Shown here one piece after another: positions 2,329-16,375 of a stretch of 16,375 nt of DNA (positions within the stretch are counted from its first letter, which is position 1; each line of letters begins with the position of its first letter). The stretch comes from an uncultured Gemmatimonadota bacterium. Its GTDB lineage: Bacteria; SM23-81; DAOVCL01. The position numbers and the translations under genes are program-made. Location of the stretch: NCBI GenBank assembly GCA_964626665.1, contig CAZVGK010000049.1, positions 1 through 16,375 on the forward strand, read 5' to 3'. The notes under the pieces were generated by a model. It ran no database searches and had not been told where the DNA came from. It saw only the letters and a list, made by a program, of their open reading frames with translations.

Positions 2329-2688
2329 TCATTTCTTCTTTCCAGTTCGCCATATGCTTTGAATCGTATCCCGCATCACAAGTATCATACCCGGCCATTT
2401 CTCCGCTTTGAACTGGCTAATGCCTTACATTATCCTCTGATGAATTTTGATTCGATTCGGCTTCCGGAGACGCACAATCAAAATACCATGATGTAGCTGG
2501 TCACGGTATTGGGCAAATCCCTTATCAGTCGTAATTAACACTCGCCTCTCCCGCTGAACTCTCTGCCAAAGAATATCATCGAGCATACCTTCATCCTCTG
2601 TTCCTCGAATATCAAGTACATTATGGCCCTGTTTCCGTAGGGCGCTCACAGTCATCAAAGGAATATTCTCATCCACGAAGATGTTCAT
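2329..2688 (-). pseudogene. DUF5615 PIN-like (VapC45-type) toxin interrupted by an in-frame TAA at 2425-2427
   Basis: MNIFVDENIP...ITTDKGF motifs; past the stop the frame continues GISQFKAEKWPGMILVMRDTIQSIWRTGKKK* to 2329, restoring a family-typical 119 codons. Confidence 0.75.
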
Positions 2689-2690
2689 AC

Positions 2691-2912
2691 TCAGTGTTCA
2701 ATGGGGATGATTTGCTCTTCAGCAAGAGCTGCAGCATAGTTAAGACAGGCTAAAATGTCATTTCTGCTAAGCGAAGGATATTCCTTGAGAAGGTCATCAA
2801 TTTGGTCCCCGTTGGCCAGCATGCGAACAATCTGATGAACAGGAATGCGAGTGTCTTTTATACAGGCCTGTCCATGGCAGATTTTTGCATCTATTGAAAT
2901 TCGTTCATACAT
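2691..2912 (-). CDS. DUF433 putative antitoxin
   Basis: RISIDAKICHGQACIKDTRIPV...LLKEYPSL...DILACLNYAA; SD GGAGG; directly upstream of the PIN-like gene. Confidence 0.9.
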   Translation of the reverse strand: MYERISIDAKICHGQACIKDTRIPVHQIVRMLANGDQIDDLLKEYPSLSRNDILACLNYAAALAEEQIIPIEH

Positions 2913-2966
2913 ACTGCACCTCCCGGAAAGTACAGGATAAAAGCGGTAGAAGTTTCTGATACAGCC

Positions 2967-3012
2967 AAAGAAAAACCGACCTGCTCAGCTTTGACATTAT
3001 GACAGATCGGCT
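2967..3012 (-). terminator. Rho-independent terminator of unit A
   Basis: Stem AGCCGATCTG / CAGGTCGGTT followed by TTTCTTT on the minus strand. Confidence 0.65.
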
Positions 3013-3143
3013 GTTTTTTTCTTGGACTCCAGCTCTAAAATAACTGCTAAAGAGCTATCGCTTTTTGCCTCCCGATTCTCCTCCACCCAATCCTGTTTTT
3101 TTAGAAAGGCAAGGTTTTTCGGCATCAGGAGTTTCCTTAAGGA
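2967..3143 (-). ncRNA. Structured leader/ncRNA unit A, divergent c-di-GMP-I (GEMM-I)-like, ending in an intrinsic terminator
   Basis: Minus strand CTGATGCCGAAAA...GGAGGCAAAAAGCGATAGCTC...ACAGCCGATCTGTC...GCAGGTCGGTTTTT; stems TTGCCTTTC/GGGAGGCAA, AGCTCT/AGAGCT and TGG-AGT-CCA; paralogous to 3305-3475. Confidence 0.45.
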
Positions 3144-3149
3144 CACTTA

Positions 3150-3178
3150 AAGATAATGAATCACACCTCACCTGTCAA
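3150..3178 (-). promoter_or_regulatory. Sigma70-type promoter driving unit A
   Basis: TTGACA (3178-3173), 17-nt spacer, TATCTT (3155-3150). Confidence 0.7.
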
Positions 3179-3304
3179 GACCTTTCTCCCTGCCGACCTT
3201 GGTAAAGGCCCTAAAGACCCTCAACCTGCATTAAAGTGTGGTAGAATCTAAGTCCTAAACCGTCAAGCGGGAGCCCTGACGGCACTGAGCCTTGCGATGC
3301 GACC

Positions 3305-3352
3305 AAAAACAAAAACCGACCTGCTTTAAATTAGTCCTTCGGCAGCTCGGCT
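3305..3352 (-). terminator. Rho-independent terminator of unit B overlapping the aptamer-like 3' strand
   Basis: Stem AGCCGAGCTGC / GCAGGTCGGTT (one mismatch) followed by TTTGTTTTT. Confidence 0.65.
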
Positions 3353-3475
3353 GTCTCGGTTATTGAACTTCAACTCAAGAATGCATCCTTGAGCACCGTG
3401 GCTTCGTCCTTCTTCATTCCCTTTCACTACACCTCGTTTTGCAAGGGAATTCCTCGTCTTTATCATCAGAATCTG
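3305..3475 (-). ncRNA. Structured leader/ncRNA unit B, c-di-GMP-I (GEMM-I)-like P3 with a remodelled P2, ending in an intrinsic terminator
   Basis: GGACGAAGCCACGGTGCTC ... GAGACAGCCGAGCTGCCGAA resembles the GEMM-I 3' half and self-pairs; further stems ATTCCCTT/AAGGGAAT, CTCAAG/CTTGAG and TTGA-AGT-TCAA. Confidence 0.55.
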
Positions 3476-3481
3476 ATATTG

Positions 3482-3509
3482 AAGATAGCAAATCTTTCTG
3501 CTTTGTCAA
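3482..3509 (-). promoter_or_regulatory. Sigma70-type promoter driving unit B
   Basis: TTGACA (3509-3504), 16-nt spacer ending in TGC (extended -10 TGn), TATCTT (3487-3482). Confidence 0.65.
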
Positions 3510-3534
3510 GGTTTTTTTATGACTGAGCCAACAA

Positions 3535-3722
3535 GCTCGAATTATTCATAAATTCGCCTAACATCTCGAATCGTCAATAATTTTTTATTGTAGGAACTCC
3601 GCCTTAGCGGAGTCTGAAGGAAGCGGACAGACCTGAAGGTCTGTCCCTACAGGGTAAATACATAAACCCCTAAAACTGAAAAGGTTATACCAATTGGTTA
3701 TCAGTTTGTGAACAATCCGGGC
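3535..3722. mobile_element. MITE-like segment bounded by imperfect 18-bp inverted repeats
   Basis: gctcgaattattcataaa (3535-3552) matches the reverse complement of tttgtgaacaatccgggc (3705-3722) at 14/18; a related solo end lies at 5274-5291. Confidence 0.45.
3590..3650. repeat. Inverted pair of GTAG-type REP sequences (REPIN-like)
   Basis: GTAGGA-ACTCCGC-ctta-GCGGAGT on plus and GTAG-GGACAGACC-ttca-GGTCTGTCC on minus; related hairpins at 1714-1739 and 2046-2067. Confidence 0.75.
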
Positions 3723-3738
3723 AAGGTTGCCATAGTTG

Positions 3739-3818
3739 GAGAAGGGAGAGGGTTAGGATAAGGGGGAATCAACAGAATTTTCACCCTCTCCTTAGTCCTC
3801 CCCCATCAAGGGGGAGGA
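3739..3818. repeat. Degenerate inverted pair of ccctctcc...gggagaggg-type palindromic repeats
   Basis: gagaagggagagggttaggataaggggg and tcaccctctccttagtcctcccccatcaagggggagg. Confidence 0.5.
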
Positions 3819-3940
3819 AATTGTTCGGAGAGCATTGGTAGTCATCACTTTCCTCCGTCAGAACAGGGGTTCTGACGGCTCGGAGAGAGGACCTGACCGC
3901 TCAGCCGGTGTAACCACGCACTAAAGTGCGGTAGAAGTTG

Positions 3941-4028
3941 GAGATTGCTTCGCCCCGATTTTCATCGGGACTCGCAATGACCGGTAAGAGAATCGCCATT
4001 GCGAGGAGTGAAGCGATCAGACAACCTT
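3941..4028. repeat. Inverted pair of GTCATTGCGAG...GCAATCTC-type palindromic elements
   Basis: gagattgcttcgccccgattttcatcgggactcgcaatgac followed by gccattgcgaggagtgaagcgatcagacaacct. Confidence 0.6.
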
Positions 4029-4170
4029 TTCGTCATTGGGATTGCGGCATTGGCTTAAGGCCCACCCCAAAGTGCGACAGAATCTTCGTCCGTCTGCGTG
4101 AATCAGCGTTGATCTGCGGTCCCCTTCGTCATTCGGATTTCGTCAATCTCTCTGTCTCCCTTCCATAGCC

Positions 4171-5148
4171 TTAACGAAGCTTAGTCAGCTCATCCTGGGG
4201 AAAGAGGGGGAGATCACCTCCATCCTCCCATCTTACCCTTTCCCCCTCTACCCTTCCAATAACTGCGCAGGGAATACCCTCATCCTCTAAGGCATCAATT
4301 ACCCCAGGGGCATCCTGGGGGGAGAGGGCGACAAGCAGGGAGCCGGAGGCAATGAGGCCCAATGGGTCAAGCCCAAATTCCTGGCAGAGAAGCCTGGTCT
4401 CCTCCAGAATGGGCAATGCTTCCCTCTGCACCTTTATCCCCACCTGAGAGGCCGAGGAGAGTTCCCAAAGTGCTGTGGCTATCCCTCCCTCCGTGGGGTC
4501 GTGCATAGCGTGAACCCGAGCAACCTTGGAGACCAGCCGTGCCTCCTTAACGATGCTTATCCCCGGCTCTACCAAGAAGTTTTGGCATCTGTGGACAAAT
4601 TCCTCCCCATATTTCCCCTCTAACTCTGCCTCTCTCTCCCTGGCAATTATGGCCGTGCCCTCGATGGCTATCCCCTTGGTCAAGAGGAGGAGGTCGCCTT
4701 CCTCTGCCCCAGAGGAGGTAACCAGCTTATCCTTAGCCACTTCCCCCAACATCTGGCCGATGAGAATAGGCCTTTTTACCCCGTCGGTGATCTCCGTATG
4801 GCCGCCGCAGAGGACCACTCCTAACCTCTGGCCTGCTTCATAAACCTGGGAGAATATCCTCTCGGCCATCCCTTCAACCTCGGCCACCTGCGGCAGGAGA
4901 AGGGTGGCCAGAAACCACCTCGGCTCTGCCCCCATCACCGCCACATCGTTGGCATTGACCTCCACCCCATAGGTCCCTAGCTCCCCCGTGGTCAAGGTCA
5001 CCGGATCGGTGGCGGCCACCAAGAACCTATCACCCATATCGATTACCGCGGCATCCTCCCCGATCCGGGGGCCCACCACCACCCGAGGATCTGGGGGACA
5101 AAACTTCTTGAGGAGGCCAGCCAAGACCTGGGGATCGAGCTTCCCCAA
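4171..5148 (-). CDS. AIR synthase-related (PurM/HypE-like) family protein
   Basis: LGKL, GPRIGEDAAV, TDP, NANDVAVMGAEPRW, GGHTE, MHDPTEGG and GSLL motifs; start reassigned to TTG 5148 behind GGAGG (ORF track start 5262 looks over-extended). Confidence 0.85.
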   Translation of the reverse strand: MGKLDPQVLAGLLKKFCPPDPRVVVGPRIGEDAAVIDMGDRFLVAATDPVTLTTGELGTYGVEVNANDVAVMGAEPRWFLATLLLPQVAEVEGMAERIFSQVYEAGQRLGVVLCGGHTEITDGVKRPILIGQMLGEVAKDKLVTSSGAEEGDLLLLTKGIAIEGTAIIAREREAELEGKYGEEFVHRCQNFLVEPGISIVKEARLVSKVARVHAMHDPTEGGIATALWELSSASQVGIKVQREALPILEETRLLCQEFGLDPLGLIASGSLLVALSPQDAPGVIDALEDEGIPCAVIGRVEGERVRWEDGGDLPLFPQDELTKLR

Positions 5149-5258: not shown

Positions 5259-5393
5259 TCAACCCCGAACTTAGCCCGCATTATTCATAAGTTCGTACTC
5301 AGATCCTGCGACTCGCCAATGACTGAACGGCCAGATACCCTCATCTGACTGGCCCCACACGAGCCGTCAGGTGCCCCCATCTGACGGCAAGAG

Positions 5394-5429
5394 AGCGAGG
5401 TGGCAGAATCGGGGTTCTGCCACCTCGCT
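5394..5429. repeat. Perfect 15-bp-stem hairpin downstream of polX (REP-like; may also act as a terminator)
   Basis: agcgaggtggcagaa-tcgggg-ttctgccacctcgct. Confidence 0.7.
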
Positions 5430-5523
5430 TTGATTTAATAGCCGCTCCGATAAATTCTTTCTTTCACTTTGCATTTTTCAATTCGTATTCTGCATTTTGC
5501 ATTAAGCCATTGCGCTTACCCTC

Positions 5524-14124: not shown

Positions 14125-14284
14125 TTATTTCATATTCTCTCTCCACCTCCGAGGATCTCTGCAGATTAAGAAGGCCCAGCGGCCAAATTCACCGTGATGA
14201 TTCACTGTTCGTATCCACCGCTTTACCACCCCTTCTTTCTGCCGATCCTGCTCTGTCTCAAATCTTCTTCACCTCCAGAACGAG
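14125..14284 (-). pseudogene. 3'-terminal fragment of a type III restriction endonuclease (Res-like) gene, copy 1, frameshifted
   Basis: LVLEVK/(1-nt insertion)/FETEQDRQKEGVVKRWIRTVNHHGEFGRWAFLICRDPRRWRENMK*; direct repeat of 15914-16087. Confidence 0.7.
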
Positions 14285-15533: not shown

Positions 15534-15760
15534 GATGCTGTTACCAAGGGTAGTTCACGCTCCCGCACAGCTGCTGCGGCGTATTGAAGCGCCTCGCGAA
15601 TGTCCTCGCGTTTCAGGTCAGGAAATGTCCTGAGAATCTCCCCTTCGGTCATCCCCTCAGCCACCATGCCCACAACCGTTGCCACGGGGACACGCAACCC
15701 GCGAATACAGGGCACACCTCCCATTTGCTTAGGATTGATAGTAATCCTTGTAAATTTTAC
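15530..15760 (-). CDS. DUF433 putative antitoxin; the expected start codon position reads GTA
   Basis: AGGAGG-8nt-GTA AAA TTT ACA AGG ATT ([26 protein letters not shown]...EALQYAA); first ATG is at 15724. Confidence 0.8.
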
Positions 15761-15913
15761 TTCGTTTACCTCCTGTTTGAATAGATACTTTTGTAATGCT
15801 ATCGTTCCACCACTTCATTCCCCCCAAAATCTATTCGTGCGTGCTGACCTTGAACGAAGCTCAGTCTCTCTAACTACATCAGGTTTTAGAATGGCTGAGC
15901 CCTCAGCAATATC

Positions 15914-16087
15914 CTATGCTGACTCTATCCCTCTCAGATTCTCCTTCAACCTCCGTGGATCTCTGCGGATCGCCAAGGCCCAGCGGCCAAATTCGCCGTG
16001 ATGATTTAAGGCTTGTATCCACCGCTTTGCCGCCCCTTCTTTCTGCCGATCCTGTTCCCTCTCCAAGCCTTTTACTTCCAGAATAAT
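15914..16087 (-). pseudogene. 3'-terminal fragment of a type III restriction endonuclease (Res-like) gene, copy 2
   Basis: IILEVKGLEREQDRQKEGAAKRWIQALNHHGEFGRWALAIRRDPRRLKENLRGIESA*; preceded in frame by TAA, no start codon. Confidence 0.75.
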
Positions 16088-16121: not shown

Positions 16122-16280
16122 TCACTCACTACCTCGTCCCTCCAACACTTCTCCCGGTGTTTTCCGCCCTCGTTCGGTTCGGTCAAAGTCCACATCGAAA
16201 CTTACAATGGTCAGGTCGTATTTCTCAGCGACAGCATATTGGTAAGCATCATCAAAGTCGAGATTAAATTTTTTGGTGGC
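16122..16280 (-). pseudogene. C-terminal part of a PIN-domain (VapC-like) toxin
   Basis: ATKKFNLDFDDAYQYAVAEKYDLTIVSFDVDFDRTERGRKTP; the frame is open to the window edge but the upstream residues do not look PIN-like. Confidence 0.7.
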
Positions 16281-16375
16281 GTAGTCAAAATTGTTGCTAA
16301 CGGGCCTTCTGGCTGAAGCCGATCCAGTTGATATTTTGAGTATCCACTTTGGATAGCTGGAGTGGACTTTTGCCG

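Follow-up and report, generated by a model that had tools for sequence, protein, structure and literature searches.

Two tandem units lie on the minus strand of a 16,375-nucleotide stretch of DNA from an uncultured Gemmatimonadota bacterium (contig CAZVGK010000049.1, called here the window), and each of them has a promoter, a body and an intrinsic terminator. The reading that we favour, at about even confidence, is that these units, named A and B, are free-standing small RNA genes derived from a c-di-GMP-I riboswitch (c-di-GMP being cyclic diguanosine monophosphate) and its terminator, and that they are neither canonical riboswitches nor a proven ligand-sensing class. The features of a small RNA gene are found together in them, which are an own promoter, an intrinsic terminator, an intergenic position and conservation in five units from three contigs. 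The promoters, the terminators and the paralogy of units A and B are beyond chance, and the internal stems are not. The unit family is absent from Rfam.

In each unit TTGACA-16/17-TATCTT is followed by about 165-175 nt and then by a hairpin with a U-tract, and the spacing between the units is 331 nt. The two promoters are at the top of the six promoter-like sites present between 2400 and 4200, each scoring 10/12, while shuffles of this region give 1.9 +/- 1.4 sites. The -10 hexamer of unit B is preceded by TG. Folded alone, the terminator hairpin of unit B has -14.7 kcal/mol and that of unit A -14.9 kcal/mol, and both are followed by U5. The 5’ arm of the unit B terminator is the 3’ strand of GEMM-I, ACAGCCGAGCUGCC, and its 3’ arm is GCAGGUCGG, and the terminator of unit A is formed by ACAGCCGAUCUG and GCAGGUCGG. 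The exact terminator motifs of the two units have no third site in the window, and both terminators were missed by the terminator scan because it allows loops of 3-8 nt. The initial annotation had described two promoter-terminator units here with a list of their motifs; every motif lies at its place on the minus strand, and the rank of the promoters and the folding of the terminators bear the description out. The features of the two units are as follows.

3482..3509 (-): promoter of unit B (upstream), TTGACA 3509-3504, 16-nt spacer, TG-TATCTT 3487-3482
3311..3476 (-): predicted transcript of unit B, about 165 nt, its start placed 6-7 nt past the -10 hexamer
3469-3464 (-): CTGATG of unit B
3450-3443 / 3423-3416 (-): hairpin of unit B, ATTCCCTT / AAGGGAAT (RNA AUUCCCUU / AAGGGAAU), 8 bp with a 19-nt loop
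3337..3418 (-): putative c-di-GMP-I (GGC-type) aptamer remnant without P2 in unit B, from the RF03167 alignment, with junction GAAGAAGG, P3 5’ strand ACGAAGCCACGG, P3/P1 3’ strand AGACAGCCGAGCUGCCGAAG and inner hairpin CUCAAG/CUUGAG
3393-3388 / 3379-3374 (-): hairpin CTCAAG / CTTGAG of unit B
3372-3364 (-): mini-hairpin TGAAGTTCA of unit B
3311..3354 (-): intrinsic terminator of unit B, ACAGCCGAGCTGCC 3354-3341 and GCAGGTCGGTTTTT 3324-3311
3179..3310 (-): spacer between the units, with hairpins that resemble repetitive extragenic palindromes (REP-like), homologous to the DNA 3’ of the L004 unit described below
3150..3178 (-): promoter of unit A (downstream), TTGACA 3178-3173, 17-nt spacer, TATCTT 3155-3150
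2971..3143 (-): predicted transcript of unit A, about 173 nt, of the A type, which L011 (two copies) and L004 share
3128-3123 (-): CTGATG of unit A
3112-3104 / 3073-3065 (-): long-range stem of unit A, TTGCCTTTC / GGGAGGCAA (RNA 5’ arm UUGCCUUUC), 9 bp including G-U
3056-3051 / 3036-3031 (-): hairpin AGCTCT / AGAGCT of unit A
3031-3023 (-): mini-hairpin TGGAGTCCA of unit A (UGG-AGU-CCA)
3027..3052 (-): hairpin CUUUAGC / GCUGGAG of unit A, 96.4% paired in the A-type units
2971..3014 (-): intrinsic terminator of unit A, ACAGCCGATCTG 3014-3003 and GCAGGTCGGTTTTT 2984-2971

Homologous units are found in other genomes. A scan of the reference genomes (one per species) with the pattern ACAGCCGANCTG-N8-38-CAGNTCGGTTT, which requires an exact terminator, gave 16 loci, and two of them have clear homologues of unit A: L004, a 1509-bp contig from a metagenome-assembled genome (MAG) of Anaerolineae, and L011, a 2682-bp contig from an unclassified bacterial MAG. 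L011 carries two tandem units, L011_1 and L011_2, which are 333 nt apart and have a promoter each, so the tandem layout with nearly equal spacing occurs in two genomes. The family has five units in three contigs (A, B, L011_1, L011_2 and L004), three of them beyond the window, and all except unit B are of the A type (n=4). An nhmmer profile of the five units recovers all of them at E <= 2e-45 and, with filters off, finds no further copies in the window or in the 16 loci; its weak extra matches are confined to terminators that the search pattern itself had selected. Eleven of the 16 loci have no similarity upstream of the pattern, and their local alignment scores are reached by at least 17 of 300 shuffles for unit A and at least 18 of 300 for unit B. 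The plasmid and phage collections have no match to 2960-3520 (blastn, ‘distant’ mode).

All five terminators have a U-tract and fold at -14.7 to -18.7 kcal/mol. The terminator hairpin and the -10 hexamer are intact in the five copies and the -35 hexamer in four of them, L004 and L011_2 having the promoter hexamers of the window (10/12) and L011_1 having TTGAGG with TATCTT. The A-type bodies are 71-86% identical, with 71-83% between units of different genomes, and the body of unit B is much further diverged. To judge from profile searches, units A and B are paralogues: a profile of the four A-type bodies, without promoter and terminator, finds the body of unit B colinearly at E=0.0054, and the full-length A-type profile finds unit B at E=1.6e-11.

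The relation of the units to riboswitches is seen in unit B. In the available text of PMC4744006, the c-di-GMP-I class (GEMM-I) has a P1 helix and the adjacent stem-loops P2 and P3, which are held by a tetraloop-receptor contact and an interhelical C-G pair, and the ligand is contacted at the three-helix junction. At the curated gathering thresholds Rfam has no match in the whole window. A permissive scan of the region 2600-4000 with all 4227 families (E up to 10) gives 10 matches, and the best of them is a weak one of unit B (3418-3337) to RF03167, c-di-GMP-I-GGC, with E=0.053. In this alignment a single nucleotide stands where the model has the 24 positions of the P2 hairpin, and AAUGAAGAAGG, CGAAGCCACGG and AGACAGCCGAGCUGCCGAAG follow the consensus with high posterior probability. 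Two of the three P1 pairs are present in this weak match, in which the junction and the 3’ strand stand on consensus columns, also with high posterior probability. The nucleotides that contact the ligand in Vc2 are G20, A47 and C92. P3 with its conserved strands AGCCACGG ... ACAGCCGnGCUGCC is present in unit B only, and unit A has retained ACAGCCGAUCUG without a 5’ strand complementary to it. The body of unit B also aligns to the canonical riboswitch of another of the 16 loci, L015, at AGGACG--AAGCCACGG, a score that is reached by 1 of 300 shuffles.

Unit B shares with the c-di-GMP-I class (clan CL00126, nearest family RF03167) the P1/P2 junction GAAGAAGG, the P3 5’ strand CGAAGCCACGG and the P3/P1 3’ strand AGACAGCCGAGCUGCCGAAG, which an intrinsic terminator also uses as its 5’ arm, as in the canonical riboswitches of L015, L010 and L005. 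It differs from the class in several respects. The P2 stem-loop with its tetraloop is absent from the alignment, the purine-rich stretch upstream in unit B has no complementary arms for P2, as read from the sequence and the fold, and without P2 the tetraloop-receptor contact and the interhelical C-G pair cannot form. Unit B is therefore not a member of the class, and it looks like a descendant of it. Unit A and the three MAG homologues are undetected by the models, a promoter stands before every unit, and the gene downstream is not a consistent one: instead of a 5’-leader position before a regulated gene, unit B and L011_1 precede the promoter of the next unit, and the genes after the other units are unrelated. 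In the profile alignment of the two types, the GEMM-like stretch GAAGAAGGACGAAGCCACGG of unit B stands opposite cgggaggcaaaaagcgatag of the A-type units, which points to a loss of P2 that preceded the divergence of the units and was followed by further drift of the A-type units away from the riboswitch.

The initial annotation had likened both units to remodelled c-di-GMP-I riboswitches. This link is supported for unit B, whose best match among the 4227 families is RF03167, and unit A has no GEMM match. The missing canonical P2 that it pointed out agrees with the alignment of unit B, and the full-score canonical RF01051 hit that it had allowed for is set aside, as no match above threshold exists in the window. 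Between its two proposals, a variant ligand-sensing class has gained no support so far (a score below threshold, no compensatory changes and mixed downstream genes), and a riboswitch-derived small RNA fits the own promoter and terminator, the two of five units that lie before another unit, and the unrelated neighbours.

Among the 14 pattern loci outside the unit family, three have c-di-GMP-I clan riboswitches above threshold. L015 (3744-4046, unclassified MAG) has two complete tandem c-di-GMP-I-GGC riboswitches, with RF03167 matches of 68.6 and 64.9 bits that are 144 nt apart, and their terminators are built on ACAGCCGAGCTGCC. L010 has a c-di-GMP-I clan match of 59.2 bits and L005 an RF01051 match of 42.4 bits. 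A terminator built on ACAGCCGAnCUG is, outside the unit family, mostly a c-di-GMP-I feature. These three canonical riboswitches are ‘ON’ designs, in which the aptamer 3’ strand ACAGCCGAGCUGCC doubles as the 5’ arm of the terminator, and termination would thus be prevented by the bound ligand. No paper on c-di-GMP riboswitches in Anaerolineae came up in a literature search judged by title or abstract.

In the mechanism that we propose, the housekeeping-type promoter TTGACA-16/17-TATCTT would drive an RNA of about 165-175 nt up to the intrinsic terminator. The ancestor would be a c-di-GMP-I (GEMM-I, GGC-type) ‘ON’ riboswitch, in which the conserved 3’ strand of the aptamer, ACAGCCGAnCUGCC, is the 5’ arm of the terminator. 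The P2 hairpin would have been lost ahead of the duplication of the unit, leaving the junction and both P3 strands in unit B and only the 3’ strand and the terminator in unit A and its MAG relatives. Without P2, the tetraloop that docks into P3 and the three-way junction would both be missing, and the canonical ligand pocket should therefore not be made. Because the aptamer is truncated in unit B or unrecognisable in unit A, the terminator is expected to form by default and to release a discrete small RNA of about 165-175 nt. Transcription and termination are predicted here, the evolutionary direction is presumed, and a function of the RNA itself, by base-pairing in trans or otherwise, is proposed. 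The intact signals in spite of diverged bodies, and the tandem spacing kept in two genomes, would speak in favour of some function.

Known systems show parts of this arrangement. In Listeria, SreA and SreB are riboswitches that, once terminated, work in trans as small RNAs; they share with the units the idea of a riboswitch-plus-terminator transcript as a small RNA, and they are still working S-adenosylmethionine riboswitches before their genes. The closest parallel is offered by merRNA of Bdellovibrio bacteriovorus, a ‘massively expressed riboswitch RNA’ of 445 nt and proposed c-di-GMP sink, which in the available text of PMC3627812 is, as is proposed for the units, a c-di-GMP-I-type element in a free-standing small RNA with no conserved downstream open reading frame (ORF). 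merRNA is evidence that such elements can occur outside classical cis-regulation. It keeps a recognisable aptamer, whereas the units have no P2, are about 170 nt long and are known from sequence alone. Bc3-5 of Bacillus thuringiensis, as far as the available text of PMC4759541 describes it, and L015 have the aptamer-plus-terminator repeated head to tail as the units have, but in a single 5’ untranslated region with one promoter and complete aptamers, whereas each unit here has a promoter and a truncated aptamer.

Several points weigh against riboswitch-derived small RNA genes. The family sample is only five sequences, and L004 and L011_1 were picked by the exact-terminator pattern, so the conservation of their terminators is partly built in; L011_2, which was found by its position only, has one change in the 12-nt 5’ terminator motif (ACAACCGATCTG). 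The RF03167 match of unit B has 20.6 bits against a threshold of 59, and no GEMM match was found for unit A (E up to 10) or for L004 and L011 (E up to 1), the best Rfam match of unit A being an unrelated Staphylococcus small RNA model at chance level (E=2.2). Purifying selection on the RNA body appears unsupported, since the identity of 71-83% between genomes is no higher than the 75-92% of the neighbouring REP-like repeats. Function itself is open to doubt, because these repeats are about as conserved and a 5’ segment of unit A, CTCCTGATGCCGA, recurs without a promoter. The nascent-RNA fold of unit B, in which the 3’ arm of the terminator is not yet made, pairs the 5’ arm of the terminator with AGCCACGG as a P3/anti-terminator, with a pairing probability of 0.68-1.0 for 10 of 12 nt. 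Finally, an ATG-started ORF of 31-46 codons lies at nearly the same place in all five units.

The internal stems weaken the case made for a conserved structure. The initial annotation had held that the stems of the two units differ in sequence and keep their pairing. Applied to the four A-type units, the structure that it drew is 91% paired, and none of its 25 pairs has both sides changed; every covariation measure of these units is reached in 500 of 500 shuffles. The folding energies of the whole units are ordinary (z -0.91 and -0.92), and 446 of 1000 dinucleotide shuffles contain stems that reach the length of those of unit A, the two stems of unit B being rarer (10 of 1000). The 3’ arms of the ‘5’ stem’ of the two units fall in non-homologous columns of the profile alignment (about 75-83 in A and 64-72 in B), so there is no covariation in the strict sense, and the claim of compensating stems is not borne out as a sign of structure. 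The check by covariation that had been suggested with it did yield homologues, but no compensatory change among the four A-type units. For the pyrimidine-rich arm, with its several opposing purine-rich stretches, more than one pairing register is available.

Individual helices fare in the same way. The long-range stem of unit A is 88.9% paired across the A-type units, with no pair changed on both sides. The AGCUCU/AGAGCU hairpin was rejected, as it is kept at 80% of A-type cells and one of its five pairs forms in one of the four sequences, and so was the UGG-AGU-CCA hairpin, which is 91.7% kept and overlaps the former by one base. The alternative CU(Y)(Y)AGC/GCUG(R)AG is better kept (96.4%) and conflicts with both hairpins, and its only changes are one-sided, from U-G to C-G. 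The long-range helix CUCCUGAU/AUCGGGAG, which RNAalifold gives for the five sequences, is not kept in L004 or L011_2, and the 5-nt anti-terminator (A/G)UCGG:CCGAU of the A-type units is too short to stand out from chance. With only three lineages, no helix is established apart from the terminator. The lack of compensatory changes and the z values near -0.9 fit a loosely structured small RNA better than an aptamer.

Among the alternatives, the one that survives best, although we consider it unlikely, is that the units are decaying or selfish duplicates that have no own function, left over from a riboswitch leader and copied together with REP-like repeats. The units sit in DNA rich in repeats, toxin-antitoxin modules and an insertion sequence element, the identity of their bodies is no higher than that of the repeats, and they have no covariation and no unusual stability. 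The homology of unit B and L004 continues beyond the terminator into hairpin repeats, as L004 210-373 aligns to 3375-3209 of the window. The segment CTCCTGATGCCGA...ACCTTG of unit A (3119-3137) is found again at 1751-1769 and 2082-2100 without a promoter, in both cases inside 332-nt repeats, which suggests that the units were pieced together, mosaic-like, from short elements that recur, and gives the region a repeat-driven look. Against relics stand the terminators and -10 hexamers that are intact in five of five units and the -35 hexamers in four, in spite of bodies diverged to 71-86% and further in unit B, whereas relics would be expected to lose promoter or terminator signals in some copies. 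The tandem of the same spacing, kept in two genomes, stands against them too.

The repeats have features of their own. REP-like hairpins occupy intergenic parts of the window at about 1660-2260, 3190-3300, 3590-3660, 3850-3940, 4060-4085 and 5390-5430, and the same elements are present in L004 (290-500) and L011 (1460-1530 and 1795-1860), with 75-92% identity between the window and the MAG contigs. This sharing suggests an Anaerolineae-type relationship of the source organism. Their stems vary, and their loops (CTTTAG/CTAAAG type) and flanks (GTAG(AAG)/CTTCTAC) recur, as in GGGACAGAGCTTTAGCCCTGTCC, CCCAGCTAAAGCTGGGTAGAAG and CCGTCAGAAC..GTTCTGACGG. The region 1661-2108 is a tandem duplication with a period of 331-332 nt and 91-95% identity, and the nearness of this period to the spacing of the units (331 and 333 nt) may be a coincidence. 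A perfect palindrome, AAAATAGG-N7-CCTATTTT, is found at 1662-1685 and 1994-2016 of the window and at 473-496 of L004. Ribosome-binding sites of unrelated genes follow closely downstream of the copies at 1662-1685 and in L004, and the palindrome AAAATAGG-N7-CCTATTTT could be an operator or a 5’-untranslated-region hairpin.

The genes around the units are not related to each other. Downstream of unit A lie two genes of a toxin-antitoxin operon, as the initial annotation had indicated.

2912-2691 (-): DUF433 antitoxin-like gene, its start codon 58 nt past the U-tract of unit A
2688-2425 (-): DUF5615/PIN-like toxin-like gene, next after DUF433

The scan of 2400-4200 lists no promoter-like site between the terminator of unit A and the start of DUF433, so read-through from unit A may supply the operon, as a minor cis effect. 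A second DUF433/DUF5615 pair (15724-15159) has no RNA unit and has its own promoter-like site (15754-15781). In two of the five units, B and L011_1, the terminator leads into the promoter of the next unit with no gene between. The gene after the L004 unit, which starts 240 nt on, encodes a secreted-looking RCC1-repeat protein, the gene after the L011 tandem is an IS110 transposase, and the L011 units lie downstream of an AbiEii-like nucleotidyltransferase gene. As no homologous unit elsewhere precedes toxin-antitoxin genes, the operon is apparently an incidental neighbour. Modules of this kind are frequent in the window, which also has a DUF5678-like ORF (1612-1382), a PIN-domain gene that runs off its end (16122-16373) and a 140-nt repeat (14130-14269 / 15934-16073, 82% identity).

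Slightly less probable than relics are cis-acting attenuators, in which unit B, and perhaps the A-type units, would sense a ligand through a remodelled two-helix aptamer without P2. Binding would keep ACAGCCGAnCUGCC off the terminator and allow read-through to the next unit and then to the DUF433/DUF5615 operon, which amounts to a tandem ‘ON’ riboswitch of a variant class. The junction and the two P3 strands of the RF03167 consensus survive in unit B, the nascent fold of unit B pairs the 5’ arm of the terminator with AGCCACGG, and its two stems are rare in shuffles, as given above. The lack of a listed promoter-like site before DUF433, where the other DUF433/DUF5615 pair has its own, also agrees with attenuation, and tandem complete c-di-GMP-I units exist elsewhere, in L015 and as the triple tandem Bc3-5 in the available text of PMC4759541. 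These points are met by the absence of P2, and with it of the tetraloop, the receptor contact and the interhelical pair, which are hallmarks of the class in the text of PMC4744006 at hand. The score of unit B is far below the RF03167 threshold, the A-type units have no GEMM match and no compensatory change, unrelated genes lie downstream, and another unit is all that follows two of the five. A promoter for each unit is unneeded for tandem riboswitches in one leader. In full-length unit B, moreover, CCGAG is duplicated, so that the terminator can form alongside the inner P3 hairpin.

Doubtful to a somewhat greater degree is a combination of the two ideas, in which unit B would be a working minimal sensor of a cyclic dinucleotide without P2, its pocket made of the junction, P3 and the upstream hairpin, and the A-type units would be its descendants turned pure small RNAs.

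The ORFs of the units raise the question of very small proteins of 31-46 residues, for which CTGATG would be the context of the start codon; the ATG-started ORF in the units does explain this motif. It keeps the same frame relative to CTT-(G/A)CC in all five units, though the position of the ATG is shifted, L004, L011_1 and L011_2 share the same final TAG after ...A(G/E)VQ, and AAGGA or AAAGG stands 8-11 nt before the ATG in the A-type units. Shuffles give ORFs of this length in 64-388 of 2000 cases per unit. The ORF of unit A (42 codons, 3000-3125, minus strand) was predicted by a gene caller and is in the protein collection as P0001, from 4 contigs of which the largest has 83,100 nt. Among 5.8 billion predicted proteins, however, the ORF of unit A has no relative except the query itself (1 of 1 candidates) and that of unit B has none, and P0001 is probably a gene-caller artefact. 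No conserved reading frame with codon-position bias is found: substitutions are flat over codon positions 1/2/3 (for example 7/8/4, 7/6/3 and 3/4/4), and unit A is frameshifted after ...SS, so that the conserved GCUGGAGUCCAA and ACAGCCGA are read in frames different from those of the other A-type units. Unit B also has no Shine-Dalgarno-like sequence, and hydrophilic, low-complexity peptides would be encoded. Genes for very small proteins are highly improbable.

Other candidate roles were tried and rejected. For a CsrA/RsmA-type sponge, GGA is not enriched, as 66-872 of 1000 shuffles per unit reach the count, and A.GGA is enriched only in unit B (42 of 1000 shuffles). A hammerhead or a kink-turn was considered for CUGAUGA of unit B, but none of the 10 Rfam matches (E up to 10) belongs to such a family, and the motif is not kept in the homologues. 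Type III toxin-antitoxin systems have short tandem RNA repeats (ToxI-like) and a terminator directly before an endoribonuclease toxin gene, whereas the units are about 330 nt apart with their own promoters, the downstream operon is the two-protein DUF433/DUF5615, and homologous units do not lie before toxins.

Each of the readings would have its own meaning for this family. If the RNAs were inert relics, they would be a warning that paralogues with ‘compensating’ stems arise without structural selection. If unit B were a sensor without P2, it would be an ‘ON’ switch that works by anti-terminator pairing, and the locus would capture the transition from riboswitch to small RNA in tandem. To our knowledge, hardly any small RNAs are known for uncultured Anaerolineae-type bacteria, and RNA regulators have scarcely been explored in Chloroflexota/Anaerolineae. 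If the units are expressed as riboswitch-derived small RNA genes, they would be a documented case in which an aptamer was cut down and its promoter-to-terminator cassette was reused as a family of small RNA genes, and the locus is a natural experiment on whether the junction and P3 without P2 retain ligand binding.

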